This document shows, piece by piece, positions 8,398 through 64,000 of a stretch of DNA of 64,000 nucleotides (position 1 is the stretch's first letter; the number at the start of each line of letters is the position of its first letter). The stretch is from positions 59,523 through 123,522 of the forward strand of contig DOMK01000020.1 of NCBI GenBank assembly GCA_003510435.1. The letters are read 5' to 3'. The stretch comes from Candidatus Magasanikiibacteriota bacterium (GTDB lineage Bacteria; Patescibacteriota; Patescibacteriia; Magasanikbacterales; UBA922). The notes under the pieces are model-generated. The model ran no database searches. It was not told the DNA's origin and was given only the letters and a program-made list of their open reading frames with translations. The translations under genes and the position numbers were made by a program.

Positions 8398-8877
8398 ATG
8401 AATTTTGAAGGAATTTTTGAAAAAACAATTTTGATTGTCAAGCCAGATGGCGTGCAAAGAAGCTTGGTTGGTGAAGTATTGCGTCGCTTAGAACTTAAGG
8501 GTCTTAAGATCGTTGGTTTGAAAATGATGCAATTAGACGAATTAAAACTTCGTGAACACTATGCCCATCATGTAGAAAAACCATTTTATTCTGGTTTGGA
8601 AAATTTTATGAAGTCTAGCCCGGTGGTGTGTATTTGTGCCGAAGGTAAAGGGGCAGTCGAAGCTGTGCGTTTGATCGCTGGTACTACCAATGCGGCCAAA
8701 GCTGACGGTGGTACTATTCGTGGTGACCTTGCTATGGGTATGTGCAATGTAGTACATTGTAGTGATAGCGTAGAGACTGCCAAAGCAGAAGTGGATAGAT
8801 TTTTTAAAGAAGGAGAAATTTTTGATTATGATAAGACTGAATATCTACATGTATATATGGATGATGAAAGAGTGTAA
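8398..8877 (+). CDS. ndk: nucleoside diphosphate kinase
   Basis: It reads 'ILIVKPDGVQRSLVGEV...' and has the active-site region 'NVVHCSDS'. Confidence 0.93.
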   Translation: MNFEGIFEKTILIVKPDGVQRSLVGEVLRRLELKGLKIVGLKMMQLDELKLREHYAHHVEKPFYSGLENFMKSSPVVCICAEGKGAVEAVRLIAGTTNAAKADGGTIRGDLAMGMCNVVHCSDSVETAKAEVDRFFKEGEIFDYDKTEYLHVYMDDERV

Positions 8878-8905
8878 GATTACAGTATCTAAGTTTTATA
8901 AGTTT

Positions 8906-8933
8906 AAAAGCGTCTAATGTAGGCGCTTTTTTG
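8906..8933 (+). terminator. rho-independent terminator after ndk
   Basis: Stem aaaagcg/cgctttt is followed by a T-run. Confidence 0.55.
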
Positions 8934-9153
8934 TATAAGAAGTTATCCACATCTCGTCTTGCTTATTTTTTAGCGTTTTAGTAAGATAAAACAGATAGAA
9001 ACAATATGAATTTACAAAATAACAATCAAAATATATATAAGAACTGGAGTATCAAGTTGTCTGTTGTCGTACGCAATCTTTTTGTGTACGTTTTGTATTC
9101 TAGGGTGCTATATATAAATGGTTGTTATAATGATTAAAAAGATATTTATATAA

Positions 9154-9190
9154 TAAAAAAGCACTCTAGAAAACTAGAGTGTTTTAATTT
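9154..9190. terminator. bidirectional terminator hairpin (gcactctag aaaa ctagagtg)
   Basis: A 9-bp perfect stem is flanked by an A-run on the 5' side and a T-run on the 3' side. Confidence 0.6.
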
Positions 9191-9361
9191 GAAACACGGA
9201 TTATACGGATTGAAAAGGATTGTACGGAGGGTAAGTAAAATTGTTCTTTATATAAGGAGTAAATAGGGTAGCGAAAATAGAATGTTTTGGGGCTAGAATT
9301 TTTTCTAAGTAATTGGAAAATATTTTGGCCCCAGAACGACTGGGGTTTTGTAGGAGGCGGC

Positions 9362-9484
9362 CATGTCGGCTGTCGTTAATGGAGAACTCAGGGCGCACGT
9401 GGACATGCTCGCGGCACAGAACGAGGGACTGCGGTTTCTCATGAGCCAGTTTCACTGGCTGACCGCGTTCGAGCTCTGGCTCGC
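9362..9484 (+). CDS. GC-rich 40-aa ORF with a strong Shine-Dalgarno site (candidate foreign small gene)
   Basis: AGGAGG lies 6 nt upstream of the ATG. It encodes 'MSAVVNGELRAHVDMLAAQNEGLRFLMSQFHWLTAFELWLADR', and the codon third positions are GC-rich, unlike the host. Confidence 0.3.
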
Positions 9485-9611
9485 CGACCGGTGAGTCAGA
9501 AGCAGCGCGAGCTGCACGTGCGGGAGGGCTTCGCTACCCAACCCACGTATTATTTATTTTATAAAAAGTAAATAGTACGTGTGTGGGATGTTATCTTTGG
9601 AGGGAAAATGA

Positions 9612-9800
9612 ATGGGTAAACAGGAATGGGTGTGCCCGAGCTGTGGTTGCGATGTCAAGAAGAAGAATACTCGGGTTTGTCCCGAGTGTGGAGCTGGTCG
9701 GTACGACAGAAAGCGCATACCTCAGATAGGTGTGTCGCAGGCGATCACGAGCTTTTTCGAGATTGCCTATCCTCCTGAAGCTAGGAGGAAGAAGTCGTGA
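9612..9800 (+). CDS. small zinc-ribbon protein (CPSCG...CPECG) in a GC-rich segment
   Basis: A GGAGGG Shine-Dalgarno site is present. Two CxxC pairs are present and codon usage is GC-rich. Confidence 0.4.
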   Translation: MGKQEWVCPSCGCDVKKKNTRVCPECGAGRYDRKRIPQIGVSQAITSFFEIAYPPEARRKKS

Positions 9801-9931
9801 CGACAGCCAAGGGACGGCGGGAATACAGACTTGTGGTCTTTCCCGCCGTCCCAGATGAAAACAAAACCGCCAAGAACTTGAGAGAAAAAAATATTGTTCT
9901 TTCAAGGAGGTAATGGCGGTTTTGTTTTAAA

Positions 9932-9960
9932 TTTGACAAACGTTTTTTATAATCGTATAA
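9932..9960 (+). promoter_or_regulatory. strong orphan promoter TTGACA, 17 bp, TATAAT
   Basis: Both hexamers are perfect consensus. No CDS follows; the tRNA-Val promoter lies about 190 nt downstream. Confidence 0.6.
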
Positions 9961-9966
9961 TATATT

Positions 9967-10145
9967 TGATCCTGATAGCTGTGGCAGTTCATATCATATC
10001 CGCAAATATTCATACTTGGGAGATCTATATTTCTCCAGCCTGTGGGCTAGAGGTGCGATCACCCACCTGATTTTCAGGGGTATGGATATGTCCTGCCTCG
10101 GGCTGATGGATCCAAAAAGACAATCTTAAACAGGTTGTTTTTTTA
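9967..10145 (+). ncRNA. candidate small RNA (about 180 nt) between the orphan promoter and a T-run
   Basis: A consensus promoter lies upstream. The segment is mixed-GC with several short hairpins (gtggg...cccac, cctga ttt tcagg) and ends in gttgttttttt. Confidence 0.3.
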
Positions 10146-10146
10146 A

Positions 10147-10175
10147 CTTGACTTTTGGAATTAATTAGTGTATTA
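10147..10175 (+). promoter_or_regulatory. tRNA-Val promoter TTGACTTTTGG...TAGTGTATTAT
   Basis: TTGACT, a 17-bp spacer and TATTAT are present. The same extended motif recurs at the rpsU promoter. Confidence 0.55.
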
Positions 10176-10191
10176 TATTTTTGCTTTTTAT

Positions 10192-10265
10192 GGACCCGTA
10201 GCTCAGTTGGTTAGAGCGCTACATTGACATTGTAGAGGTCAGAAGTTCAACTCTTCTCGGGTCTA
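10192..10265 (+). tRNA. tRNA-Val (anticodon GAC)
   Basis: It folds as a cloverleaf: GGACCCG acceptor, GCTC/GAGC D-stem, anticodon loop TTGACAT, T-loop TTCAACT. CCA is not encoded. Confidence 0.85.
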
Positions 10266-10306
10266 CTAGGGCTTCGCTACGCTACGCCCTATAAATAATT
10301 TACTAC

Positions 10307-10335
10307 TTGAAAAAAAAATGGAAGTGTAGTATAAT
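10307..10335 (+). promoter_or_regulatory. tRNA-Ile promoter TTGAAA, 17 bp, TATAAT
   Basis: The hexamers lie directly upstream of tRNA-Ile. Confidence 0.5.
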
Positions 10336-10351
10336 CGTTTTACTTTTTTAT

Positions 10352-10428
10352 GGGCAATTAGCTCAGTTGGCTAGAGCGCAACACTGATAATGTTGAGGTC
10401 CCAGGTTCGATTCCTGGATTGCCCACCA
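10352..10428 (+). tRNA. tRNA-Ile (anticodon GAT), CCA encoded
   Basis: It has acceptor GGGCAAT/ATTGCCC, anticodon loop CTGATAA and T-loop TTCGATT, and ends ACCA. Confidence 0.85.
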
Positions 10429-10539
10429 AACACAGTTGGACAAGACTGTGTTTTAATTTACAAAAAAGATGCTTAGTAATGAGATTCTCGGAGCGAAGCG
10501 AAGATCCCGATTTATATCGGGGCTGGATTGCCCACCAAG

Positions 10540-10577
10540 CCGTCCAAAATAGGACGGTTTTAAATTTGATTTTTTTG
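10540..10577 (+). terminator. rho-independent terminator (ccgtcc aaaata ggacgg plus a long T-run)
   Basis: A 6-bp GC-rich stem is followed by ttttaaatttgattttttt. Confidence 0.6.
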
Positions 10578-10618
10578 GAAAATAGGTATATAATTGATTT
10601 TACATAATTTTATTTTTT

Positions 10619-11266
10619 ATGATACCTAACACTGTTGAAGAGCAGACAGAGGAACAAGAAAAAATTGAATCCTTACCAGAAAAAGAAGAAGTGGTAAGCG
10701 AAGTAGAAAAAGGTTTTTTGGCCAAGACTAGCCTTTTCTTTTTGGAATTAATCAAGATTGTTATTTTGGCGGCGATTACGATTGGCCTGGTACGTTATTT
10801 TTTGTTCAAACCATTTTATGTAAAAGGTCAATCAATGGAACCAAATTTTTATGAAAGTGATTACCTTATTATAGATGAATTATCTTATCGTTTTCGTGAA
10901 CCCGAGCGGGGGGAGGTTGTGGTTTTTCGCGCTCCGGTTGATAAAAAAGAATTTTATCTAAAACGAATCTTAGGTTTACCAGGAGAGAGAGTGAAAGTTG
11001 GTGAGGGAAAAGTGGTTGTTTATAATGATAATTACCCACAAGGAATTTTGGTAGAAGAAAATTATTTAACCGAAACTACGCCTGGTTCTACTATTACTAC
11101 TCTTGGTTCTGATCAATATTTTGTCATGGGTGACAATCGTGATGCTAGCTATGATTCTCGTCGGTTTGGACCAATTGAAAAAACAGATTTTGTTGGTCGA
11201 GCTTGGGTAAGAGGTTGGCCATTTAGTCGCTTGAGTGCGTTTGAAGTCCCAAAATATAATTTTTAA
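10619..11266 (+). CDS. lepB: signal peptidase I
   Basis: It has 'GQSMEPNF' (catalytic Ser), 'LKRILGLPGE' and 'YFVMGDNRDASYDSR' (GDNR box). Confidence 0.9.
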   Translation: MIPNTVEEQTEEQEKIESLPEKEEVVSEVEKGFLAKTSLFFLELIKIVILAAITIGLVRYFLFKPFYVKGQSMEPNFYESDYLIIDELSYRFREPERGEVVVFRAPVDKKEFYLKRILGLPGERVKVGEGKVVVYNDNYPQGILVEENYLTETTPGSTITTLGSDQYFVMGDNRDASYDSRRFGPIEKTDFVGRAWVRGWPFSRLSAFEVPKYNF

Positions 11267-48103: not shown

Positions 48104-48418
48104 AATAAAAATAATTAACAGCAGAAATAGCTAATATTAGCTATTTTTTTATTTTTAAACATGTTTAACTATTGACCCCACAGAATGTCATGCCTGGTTC
48201 GCTTCGCTTCACCATGGCTGACATCAGCGGGGCGAGATCAGGTTTTGCATTTTTTTGTCTATTATCATTATTTTGAGTTTTGCCATTATCTGGGGATAAT
48301 AACATTGACAAAGTCCTCGAAATATGGTATTTTTGTATGTTCAAAAAAGTTGGTTGGCAACTAGGTGTTCGTATAAAATGAATACCAAGGTGCCTATCAA
48401 CCCAAAGAAGGAGGTCCC

Positions 48419-48616
48419 ATGAAGGGATTCCTGCTGCGGTTTCTAGCCCTTCTGGCGATGATGTTCGTCGTCAGCGCCTGCGAGTCGGAGACGGGTTACA
48501 CCGTCTGCGAACAGCAGTGCGAGTCCAAGGGCGTGTCGTCCGAGGACTGGGACGAATGCATCGGAGGATGCGAGGCTGAGGCTGAGGTCGAAGCCAAGCG
48601 TTTTTCGGACATGTAG
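48419..48616 (+). CDS. GC-rich small Cys-rich lipoprotein-like peptide (65 aa)
   Basis: A perfect GAAGGAGG Shine-Dalgarno site is present. The signal peptide ends in lipobox 'VVSAC', followed by six further Cys. The GC-rich codon usage is foreign to the host. Confidence 0.45.
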   Translation: MKGFLLRFLALLAMMFVVSACESETGYTVCEQQCESKGVSSEDWDECIGGCEAEAEVEAKRFSDM

Positions 48617-48775
48617 TCCCAGATACGGCACGACAGGCCACATTCCCGTCGACTATTAAGAGAGGTCGACAGCGCTGGGAGCAAACATCTCTTTTCTGAA
48701 GGAGGGCTGGAGTCAATAAGCGCAATTGATTCCGTCCGATTATTATTTCTATTTTAATAGAAGTTATTGAGGAAT

Positions 48776-48810
48776 AAAAACCCCAGGCTTTGTCTGAGGG
48801 TTTTTATTTG
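48776..48810 (+). terminator. rho-independent terminator (aaacccc...gggttttt)
   Basis: A bulged hairpin is followed by a T-run. Confidence 0.55.
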
Positions 48811-63287: not shown

Positions 63288-64000
63288 CTCTGTCATATTT
63301 GATATATGATTAAGATGGGTAAAGTGTGCCCAATTTGGCTAAAACTAGCGGATAAGTGTGAATAAGAACAATAAAAGTGCTAACTTTTGCGATCTGTATA
63401 TATAAATATATAACAAGTCTTTCTCAGAGATTGTCATGATATGGAAAAATGATGATTTGTGAAAGAAGATTTGTGGCTAGATCATTACAATTCAAAAACA
63501 TAAAAATAAAAGTATAAATATTATTCTTTCCTTTTGCTGTGCAAAAGCGAGTCTTTGGCTCGGTAGGTATTGTTTTTACTCATCCCCCTAACCCCTTCTC
63601 TACAAAGTAGAGAAGGGGAGAATAGATTAAAACGTTTCCCCCTCTCTTACTGAAAGAGAGGGGGAACAAGGGGGTGAGTTAAGAAACAAAACCCGCCGAG
63701 CCATACCTGTGGCTCGCGAGACAATGTTTCCCTTTCTCGATGACTAGTGGTCGTTGAGCGAGGGTAGAGATATGGTACCGGTTTTCTGTATCGTTTCTCA
63801 GCAACCCGTCTTCGGGCGGGTGAAAGGTTGGTGAGCCGTGAAGACGGCTCGGAAGTTGGCCACGAGCTTGTTCGTGGTATTGCTGGGTCTCGCTCACGAG
63901 ACGAATGCTTTCGGGCAGGAGTCCTTCGTGAGTGCCCCGCGCGGAGGGATGCCGTCTGAGGCGGATCTTCGCGGGGGGGCCATTGAAGCCCTCGAGGCTT

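Follow-up and report, generated by a model that had tools for sequence, protein, structure and literature searches.

Introduction

Small genes carried on strongly paired RNA, or in arrays of interchangeable cassettes, are known from several systems. In type I toxin mRNAs (hok/Sok, AapA1/IsoA1, ldr, sib) the 5′ and 3′ regions are joined by long-distance pairing, and the ldr, sib and aapA loci occur in tandem copies, with strain-specific presence or absence, at a fixed intergenic site. The 5′ stabilisers of mRNA include the STAB-SD element of cryIIIA and the leaders of ermC and aprE, all Gram-positive, and the 5′ hairpin of the ompA leader. Dual-function structured RNAs are represented by Staphylococcus aureus RNAIII/hld, SgrS/SgrT and SR1/SR1P, and the attC sites of integron cassettes have a size range of 57-141 nt. 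The present work concerns a GC-rich patch between ndk and lepB in a 64,000-nucleotide stretch of DNA (contig DOMK01000020.1; the whole stretch is called here the window) from Candidatus Magasanikbacteria, of the candidate phyla radiation (CPR, Patescibacteria). The patch contains two units: unit A, with the small open reading frame (ORF) ORF1, and unit B, with ORF2, the frame of a probable zinc-ribbon protein. It is proposed, with a probability of about 0.55, that they are two lineage-specific small-protein genes on unusually structured mRNAs, at a locus where ORFs turn over quickly.

In unit A, ORF1 is enclosed in a structural frame formed by a short box, a helix that pairs the two ends of the unit (P1), a 5′ hairpin (H1) and a 3′ hairpin (H2). 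This frame resembles in part type I toxin mRNAs, integron cassettes, 5′ stabilisers and RNAIII, and it fails most of their defining tests among those run. Like the toxin mRNAs, unit A has a small ORF on a compact, end-paired mRNA, with a fixed intergenic site, tandem copies and strain-variable presence; unlike them, its peptides are non-hydrophobic, no antisense promoter was found in the units scanned, the ribosome-binding site is exposed, and the ORFs are unrelated between species. With the 5′ stabilisers it shares an AAGGAG not followed by a start codon, a strong 5′ stem-loop and a 3′ hairpin, which fits exonuclease protection, but here the ends pair mutually and with the coding sequence, and the frame is kept across the lineage while the ORF changes. 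As in dual-function RNAs, unit A is highly structured, with long-range closing helices and an embedded small ORF; unlike in these, no conserved single-stranded seed or C-rich loops were identified, and the ORF fills most of the interior and has coding periodicity.

Concerning integron cassettes, the locus is similar in its arrays of small, mostly orphan ORFs at one site, in hairpins conserved in structure and in a content that varies among close relatives, and the GGCAAC/GTTGCC ends of P1 recall the AAC...GTT core sites of attC (by eye, they match 5 of 7 positions of RYYYAAC/GTTRRRY). However, no IntI or attI was recognised within about 9 kb upstream and 20 kb downstream, the paired ends, which span 210-670 nt, have the whole ORF between them instead of forming an attC after it, and each unit here can have a promoter and a terminator of its own. 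The literature searched gave no description of such a locus or frame.

A family of framed units downstream of ndk

Unit A is a member of a locus-specific family of framed small-gene units located downstream of ndk. Many other Magasanikbacteria display a peak of 60-73% GC, 200-300 nt long, 400-700 nt after ndk, and the units share a common layout: a GTTCTTT box, a spacer of 5-19 nt, the 5′ strand of P1, H1, a Shine-Dalgarno (SD) sequence with a start codon at the same place in every unit, a small ORF, the 3′ strand of P1 and H2. P1 has 10-21 bp, often with the form GGCAAC.../...GTTGCC, H1 has 17-27 bp and an AT-rich tip, and the ORF encodes 34-180 amino acids (aa). At least 15 relatives have the frame; with the window they give a count of 18 units, since L040 and L048 both contain a tandem pair (L-numbers are labels of the contigs or loci compared, and L048b, L048c, L050_1 and L050_3 are individual units); further small GC-rich ORF units of L048 and L050 were excluded from this count.

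The association of box and helix was evaluated by counting. A strong Watson-Crick P1 was present after 16 of the 41 exact boxes downstream of ndk, versus 1 of 60 elsewhere in the same loci (Fisher p = 8e-7), while random anchors gave a P1 in 2.2% of cases. The 18 units contain 16 distinct P1 10-mers, each with its own complement at the 3′ end. The H1 position is occupied by a hairpin of 17-27 bp in 17/18 members, with no sequence conservation between subgroups and with covariation within the L034/L044/L047 subgroup, and a hairpin of 13-20 bp stands directly 3′ of the second P1 strand in 18/18. The H1 and H2 windows are on average about 2 standard deviations (sd) more stable than random ones, but the 1st (H1) or 5th (H2) percentile is reached by only 4/18, which makes the stability of the hairpins a weak criterion by itself. 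In L023 and L048b a consensus promoter immediately precedes the box, and L048b has a canonical terminator as its H2; therefore, at least some units are transcription units of their own, and the RNA includes the box. All 18 units, and likewise all the contigs that span the patch, share the same orientation, and the GC content of the cassettes is independent of that of the host.

In several H2 hairpins, one arm is anti-SD-like and its partner is a perfect SD-like sequence. In L040b (L040 7798-7842), for example, UCACCUCC pairs with GGAGGUGA, the former being identical to the 3′ end of 16S rRNA, and no ORF follows.

Structure and coding character of unit A

The features of the patch and of its surroundings are collected in Table 1. 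Compared with dinucleotide shuffles, unit A has a fold z-score of -10.95 versus 0 to -2.2 for seven host gene segments. The coding sequence of ORF1 alone gives z = -0.14, so the structure of unit A lies in pairings between its untranslated regions (UTRs) and between these and the coding sequence. A helix analogous to the coding-to-3′UTR one, with different sequence, could be read by eye in L089. The start codon is accessible: in the window, the AUG is in a hairpin loop with an unpaired probability of 1.00, and for 15 units the mean unpaired probability of positions -18 to +12 is 0.49, versus 0.31 for the whole units (Wilcoxon p = 1.2e-4). An exposed translation start argues for translatable mRNAs and against toxin mRNAs with a sequestered SD. 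The folding asymmetry between plus and minus strands was the same in host genes, so it does not separate RNA from DNA pairing.

Table 1. Coordinates in the window of the elements of the patch and of the neighbouring genes
Feature	Position	Strand	Remarks
Ndk gene	8398-8877		
Unit A	9241-9587	+	Box, P1, H1, SD and start, ORF1, helix of coding sequence with 3′UTR, H2
Box heading unit A, TTGTTCTTT	9241..9249	+	Conserved GTTCTTT; in every family member 5-19 nt separate it from the P1 5′ strand
AAGGAG, SD-like, no start codon following	9253..9258	+	Read from sequence; also in L009, L010, L025 and L089 between box and P1
P1 5′ strand, GGGTAGCGAA	9266..9275	+	Pairs with 9530-9539 in minimum free energy and centroid folds
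H1, 24-bp 5′ hairpin	9284..9337	+	AT-rich tip, 54 nt; folding
AGGAGG, ribosome-binding site of ORF1	9352..9357	+	5-base spacer to ATG
ORF1, 43 aa, MSAVVNGELRAHVDMLAAQNEGLRFLMSQFHWLTAFELWLADR	9363..9494	+	AGGAGG and ATG, GC by codon position, periodicity
5′ arm of coding-to-3′UTR helix, GCGCACGTGGACATGCTCGCG	9393..9413	+	Codons 11-17 of ORF1; pairs with 9506-9522
3′ arm of coding-to-3′UTR helix, CGCGAGCTGCACGTGCG	9506..9522	+	Pairs with 9393-9413, one bulge
P1 3′ strand, TTCGCTACCC	9530..9539	+	10-bp helix with 9266-9275
H2, 3′ hairpin of unit A	9542..9587	+	GC clamp, AT-rich top; folding
Unit B	9599-9928	+	ORF2, then covarying hairpin, terminator
GGAGGG, ribosome-binding site of ORF2	9599..9604	+	Box-like TATCTTT before it; conserved in L009
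ORF2, 62-aa probable zinc-ribbon protein	9612..9800	+	CPSCG...CPECG, C-terminal YPPE motif; homologues at same site
Perfect 13-bp GC-rich hairpin 3′ of ORF2	9811..9852	+	Inverted repeat 9811-9823/9840-9852
Long terminator-like hairpin and T-run	9858..9928	+	15-nt inverted repeat 9858-9872/9914-9928; conserved in L009, L089
Third box, TGTTCTTT	9895-9902	+	In 3′ half of terminator-like hairpin, which also has AAGGAGG
Sigma-70 promoter of 6S-like RNA	9933-9961	+	TTGACA-17-TATAAT, 12/12 consensus match
6S-like RNA	9966-10116	+	Rfam 6S, 38.9 bits, E = 6.5e-6, under gathering score 46.4
tRNA-Val	10192		
tRNA-Ile	10352		
Signal peptidase I gene lepB	10619-11266		

ORF1 has GC fractions of 0.67, 0.37 and 0.79 at the three codon positions and a three-base periodicity with p = 2e-4. 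Periodicity at p < 0.06 was also obtained for 12 of the 15 other family ORFs tested, while it was absent from five non-coding controls (tmRNA, the 6S-like RNA, the segment 7998-8130, the 5′UTR of unit A and the hairpins after ORF2). In the SD-defined ORFs, GC is lowest at second positions (GC2) and highest at third positions (GC3), which is the pattern of GC-rich coding DNA. The family proteins are mostly unrelated to each other, and many of them contain Arg-rich motifs, such as RLRRKP in L034, L044 and L047; as a whole, the ORF1 and family peptides are charged, soluble or Arg-rich, with no transmembrane stretch. Neither ORF1 nor ORF2 was called by any of the gene callers behind the public contigs, and exact-sequence look-ups gave no record of either, i.e., they have never been called as genes.

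Loss and replacement of the interior between relatives

The sister metagenome-assembled genome (MAG) L009, with an Ndk 97% identical, is without 9272-9591 and has 65 unrelated AT-rich bases instead, although it retains the TTGTTCTTT box, AAGGAG, the first bases of P1, and ORF2. Going by these comparisons, the content of unit A turns over between relatives. A 47-nt segment just upstream of the box (9190-9236), with short direct repeats (ACGGATT twice, GGATTGTACGGA), is also absent from L009.

L048 and L050 are a pair of close relatives, whose Ndk proteins share 98% aa identity, with an ndk synonymous divergence (dS) of 0.41 and flanks 88.6% identical. For the orthologous unit L048c/L050_3, the identity is 83% in the 5′UTR, 59% in the coding sequence and 92% in the 3′UTR, and the ratio of non-synonymous to synonymous divergence (dN/dS) is 0.48, versus 0.02 for ndk in the same pair. 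Concerning L048b and L050_1, the box and the P1 5′ strand are alike in 31/32 nt, and the P1 3′ strand with H2 in about 87%, but the interiors (top of H1 and ORF) have no similarity (local-alignment z = -1.1). As the dS of ndk is only 0.41, point substitution cannot give such dissimilar interiors. The order of modules also differs between the L048 and L050 arrays, and the window compared to L010 has a related frame with an unrelated interior. In these alignments the frame is more conserved than the ORF enclosed in it, which is the reverse of the usual conservation of coding sequence over UTR, and, in at least one case within a close pair, the interior was replaced outright.

Unit B and the probable zinc-ribbon protein of ORF2

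ORF2 is a conserved protein gene under purifying selection, as judged from its dN/dS (0.11 versus L009 and 0.15 versus L089), with synonymous changes at Cys and Pro codons. L009 carries an 84%-identical copy in the same place. An exhaustive HMMER search with ORF2 yielded three true small homologues of 61-74 aa, P0001, P0003 and P0042, with identities of 65% (E = 2e-19), 50% and 46%, respectively, the remainder being generic zinc-ribbon repeats. In their contigs, the homologue lies after ndk, and lepB and hisS come next on the one contig long enough. The four Cys and the C-terminal YPPE motif are invariant. The homologues have 49-53% GC in loci of 36-46% GC and their synonymous sites are saturated (dS 1.8); therefore, this composition is maintained and is not the residue of a recent transfer.

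ORF2 had no match in a word-indexed search of 5.8 billion proteins, and a metagenome scan with the ORF2 alignment gave two weak loci. It is similar to small stand-alone zinc-ribbon proteins (Zn_Ribbon_1/DZR type, Brz of Halobacterium) in its basic tail and in its two CxxC knuckles, which fall within about 20 residues; however, the matches to zinc-ribbon models were weak (E = 0.009-0.05) and far below the family cut-offs of Pfam and NCBIfam, and the conserved C-terminal motif F-x-I-x-YPPE matches no family. An AlphaFold2 model had a confidence (predicted local distance difference test, pLDDT) of 68, too low for a fold search, with the N-terminal ribbon at only 73-82. The product of ORF2 is probably a zinc-ribbon protein that binds nucleic acid or protein.

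Downstream of ORF2, the pairing of the 13-bp hairpin is kept in L009 through two compensatory double changes, and L089 has an analogous hairpin. The promoter of the 6S-like RNA lies directly 3′ of the 9858-9928 hairpin. Unit B may be seen as the next gene of the array, with a stem-loop followed by a terminator that would close the array before the 6S promoter.

Interpretation of the framed units and competing explanations

The interpretation of the patch as two small-protein genes on structured mRNAs can be put in terms of a possible mechanism. By analogy with known leaders, a compact, nuclease-resistant and translatable mRNA would be shielded at its 5′ end by P1, H1 and the AAGGAG at 9253-9258, the last in a stabiliser role like that of STAB-SD, and H2 would shield the 3′ end or act as its terminator. 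Homology arms could be provided by the conserved frame, so that recombination would swap the ORF-bearing interior. The high GC may be held by selection for folding or by the composition of a cassette pool, rather than by recent transfer, and the product of ORF1 would be a fast-evolving soluble peptide, presumably translated.

Several points weigh against this interpretation. It is by analogy that P1, H1 and H2 are given a stabiliser role, and the consensus scan of the window found no promoter-like site for unit A or ORF2. From the coding-type composition and SD-ATG start of ORF1 we infer its translation, but no homologue of ORF1 was found among the 5.8 billion proteins of the word-indexed search or in the metagenome scan. 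The probable orthologue in L089 differs in length and sequence: BLASTP gave no alignment between the two and the nucleotide-level z was only 1.8, although they have in common the SD-ATG region and, by eye, an N-terminal V-x-N-G-x-R. It is therefore possible that the sequence of the peptide is under no constraint. The dN/dS of L034 versus L047 is about 1, and there is an 84-aa ORF on the opposite strand of unit A, GC-rich DNA giving long ORFs by chance. The pairing of unit A could matter in single-stranded DNA instead of RNA. With respect to recombination, no donor was found for the replaced interiors, nor any sign of long-range transfer, as similarity between lineages is no higher for any cassette ORF than for Ndk.

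A more far-reaching possibility, offered tentatively and on balance unlikely, is that the region downstream of ndk is a hitherto undescribed cassette locus in which the hairpin frame acts as an expression and recombination socket, integron-like without an integrase, in Magasanikbacteria and perhaps in other CPR. Unrelated GC-rich mini-genes, each with its own H1, would be exchanged through the frame, and the outcome would be a fast-changing repertoire of small basic proteins, e.g., for host or phage interaction. The genomes of CPR bacteria are small and little understood, and most of their small proteins and RNA elements lack annotation. If the frame were a stabiliser and a recombination socket, it would give a handle on hidden CPR repertoires of small proteins, a candidate expression scaffold and a testable case of rapid small-gene turnover or de novo birth. 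If the units are merely structured mRNAs, annotation still gains two genes and a 6S-like RNA, and a false lead of horizontal transfer is removed.

It is rather unlikely that unit A acts chiefly as a structured non-coding RNA, or as a dual-function one of the RNAIII type, in which the GC-rich interior was selected for pairing and ORF1 is incidental or recently born. The very low fold z-score with closing long-range helices, the covariation of a frame whose protein is not conserved, the L034/L047 dN/dS near 1, the long ORFs also present on the opposite strand and the location inside a cluster of stable-RNA genes (6S, tRNAs) would all be expected of such an RNA. However, the coding periodicity of ORF1 and most family ORFs is absent from the non-coding controls, every unit has an SD and start codon in a more accessible region, and protein motifs are retained in L048c/L050_3 and in L034/L047. 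In addition, Rfam 15 gave no match for 9250-9930 at the gathering threshold, nor at E < 10 beyond noise, and the loci of 11 relatives gave nothing for the frame, the only matches in the window and relatives being tRNAs, tmRNA and a sub-threshold 6S.

A further alternative is a mobile cassette at the DNA level that site-specific or single-strand recombination would move (integron cassette, miniature inverted-repeat transposable element (MITE), IS200/IS605 derivative or inverton), with P1 as terminal inverted repeats, H1 or H2 as sites recognised by their structure and GTTCTTT as target. The presence/absence difference versus L009, the same frame with unrelated interiors in close relatives, the tandem arrays of 2-4 units with a module order that differs between L048 and L050, the hairpins conserved in structure and not in sequence, like attC sites, and the independence of cassette and host GC are in agreement with it. 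Nevertheless, it is considered unlikely: no integrase, transposase or invertase was seen within 9 kb upstream and 20 kb downstream, there is one such locus in 64 kb with no second copy of unit A, and no cassette is common to distant lineages. Moreover, the P1 sequences are species-specific instead of a common recognition site, the span of P1 around the ORF is unlike the size of attC, the uniform orientation of the 18 units gives no sign of inversion, and there is neither a target-site duplication nor direct repeats flanking unit A.

A type I toxin-antitoxin-like system, in which the mRNA of a toxic peptide would be inactivated by 5′-3′ pairing and controlled by an antisense RNA, is improbable. 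An end-paired mRNA with a small ORF, repeated in tandem and present or absent according to the strain at one intergenic position, recalls such systems, and a toxin/antitoxin module was one of the suggestions made in a sequence-only reading of the patch that preceded this analysis. This suggestion was not supported, since the peptides of ORF1 and the family are charged and soluble, not transmembrane or hydrophobic, the SD and start are more exposed than the rest of the RNA in spite of the end pairing by P1, and no toxin match was given by PADLOC or Pfam. Consistent minus-strand promoter-like sites, as needed for an antisense RNA, were not found within the units of the window, L040 or L048 in a scan limited to consensus promoters.

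A number of other candidates were considered and dropped. These were RNase P, the signal recognition particle RNA and group I/II introns; a retron msr-msd, as there is no reverse transcriptase nearby; the template of a diversity-generating retroelement, as there is no second copy in 64 kb; and a sigma-54 promoter at GGCAAC, as the -12 element is absent. An inverton was discarded on account of the single orientation in all spanning contigs and the 18 units, with no invertase seen nearby, and a MITE or transposon derivative because there is no second copy in 64 kb, the inverted repeats differ between species and direct repeats do not flank the unit.

Composition, origin and integrity of the patch

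The sequence-only reading had described the span 9350-9905 as a cassette of about 60% GC. The sharp composition jump is real, but the figure is true of the first block only. The span is not uniform and has 52.3% GC as a whole, with two GC-rich blocks separated by an AT-rich hairpin: 62.8% in 9340-9535, 31.7% in 9536-9595, 53.3% in 9596-9856 and 33.8% in 9857-9930. The flanks have 27.7% (8878-9263) and 37.8% (9931-10618), the window has 35.6% overall, and the 150-nt windows at 9331-9550 belong to the three GC-richest spots of the 64 kb. The third positions had been rightly considered alien to the host: host GC3 is 0.265 +/- 0.041, with a maximum of 0.35 (22 long host ORFs), and ORF1, at 0.79, and ORF2, at 0.58, are 13 and 8 sd above host genes, respectively.

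Both mini-ORFs proposed in that reading look like real genes. The first had been placed at 9362..9484, with 40 codons; its AGGAGG was correct, while the actual ORF1 spans 9363-9494 and has 43 aa plus stop. The second, a 62-aa zinc-ribbon ORF at 9612-9800 with CPxCG...CPECG and GGAGGG (9599-9604), was as described. The long inverted repeat exists (9393-9413 versus 9506-9522), but with one bulge and with positions that had been off by about 5-10 nt, and the further hairpins given as 12-14 bp are real and perfect, with exact lengths of 13 nt (9811-9823/9840-9852) and 15 nt (9858-9872/9914-9928). The pairing of GGGTAGCGAA (9266-9275) with TTCGCTACCC (9530-9539), enclosing the first block, had been overlooked. 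The suggestion of a structured RNA agrees with the fold z-scores of -8.45 (9255-9550) and -10.1 (9590-9935), which are those of an unusually structured region. The tRNA pair said to follow immediately is present, but the 6S-like RNA gene intervenes.

Concerning the origin of the patch, horizontally acquired DNA, possibly a phage or host-derived remnant, had been suggested. The first block is indeed variable, as it is missing from the closest sister species. A recent acquisition of ORF2 is unsupported: relatives have this gene in the same position, it is under purifying selection, and it remains near 50% GC in genomes of 36-39% GC over saturated synonymous divergence. Judged over the entire locus, the idea of freshly acquired foreign DNA fails by the refuting condition set in the sequence-only reading, since relatives have homologous GC-rich segments in this position. 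Phage records (INPHARED, blastn) matched on the tRNAs only, PLSDB gave no plasmid match, the scan of IMG/VR gave no relative of ORF2, PHROGs gave only zinc-ribbon noise, and nothing above cut-offs was obtained with Pfam, PHROGs, PADLOC and NCBIfam for ORF1, ORF2 and 10 family proteins. So, a recent phage or host remnant not yet at the composition of its host, which the extreme GC3 of ORF1, the absence of unit A from the sister species and the orphan character of ORF1 might suggest, is very improbable: besides the lack of similarity to the phage, plasmid and IMG/VR records searched, the frame of unit A has been inherited by the lineage in one fixed location, relatives keep ORF2 in synteny, with its GC maintained over saturated dS, and GC-rich small units recur in the genome (7998-8130, 48335-48810, 63690-64000).

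An assembly chimera or contaminant reads, which had also been contemplated and for which it could be argued that 4/8 contigs end inside 9481-9717, has a negligible probability, since both junctions are 100% identical in assemblies from JGI, ENA and Logan of different samples (8 contigs), as are the 1743 bases from ndk to lepB, and ORF2 with its flanks is collinear in the independent MAG L009. Two contigs (L001 and L004) span the whole patch and beyond, and L002 reaches tRNA-Val. The patch is, therefore, real, and neither a phage scrap nor an assembly error. The contigs that terminate inside 9481-9717 are L003, L005, L006 and L007, one of them within the P1 3′ strand at 9535; palindromes may have tangled the assembly graph, GC-rich hairpins may have been poorly covered, or strains may differ at the cassette.

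Neighbourhood of the patch and other elements of the window

The patch is bordered by ndk on the 5′ side and by the 6S-like RNA gene, two tRNA genes and lepB on the 3′ side. By blastn, the 6S-like RNA is conserved in many Magasanikbacteria loci, directly 3′ of the cassette array. The nearby ORFs are tgt, a UvrD helicase, an uncharacterised 624-aa ORF, ndk, lepB, HisS and a YqeY-like gene, and giant surface proteins of 742 and 5275 aa are also encoded in the neighbourhood. Exact copies of Ndk are present on groundwater metagenome contigs, and most of the nearest genomes in the collection, judged by Ndk (73-97% aa identity), bear the label Candidatus Magasanikbacteria.

Other GC-rich stretches occur in the window. 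The segment 7998-8130 (+), between the 624-aa ORF and ndk, has about 54% GC and is structured (fold z = -6.55), with no three-base periodicity and no Rfam match at E < 1; it is possibly an undescribed small RNA. A structured small-gene unit (z = -9.6) at 48335-48810 (+) is formed by a promoter, a 5′ hairpin containing TTGGCAAC, AAGGAGG, an ORF and a terminator, the ORF (48419-48616) being lipoprotein-like, with 65 aa and GC3 0.78. At 63690-64000, a stretch of 60-65% GC is cut by the end of the window, and strong hairpins precede it at 63583-63625 and 63640-63675. The unit at 48335-48810 suggests that GC-rich structured mini-genes recur in the genome.

Another observation concerns the tRNA genes. 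At 10414-10538, the final 16 nt of tRNA-Ile (CTGGATTGCCCACCAA) occur a second time, 109 nt downstream, following an insert of 93 nt that ends in the hairpin CCCGATTTATATCGGG. L009 (7560-7700) has the same tRNA-Ile feature, plus an insert of about 75 nt with a 29-nt duplication of the 3′ end of tRNA-Val. These duplications of tRNA 3′ ends look like att-type scars of small tRNA-targeting elements.

Finally, a small ORF of about 43-55 aa with an MN(L/Y)..N start, mostly uncalled as a gene, comes directly after ndk in the window (9006-9137), L089 (1849-1989), L092 (157-293) and L050 (2868-3032). It is followed by a terminator and has in the relatives a Cys-rich tail (NDDGCGGCS, CCGKDDGCCGNCNCE), its product being possibly a metal-binding or modified peptide.

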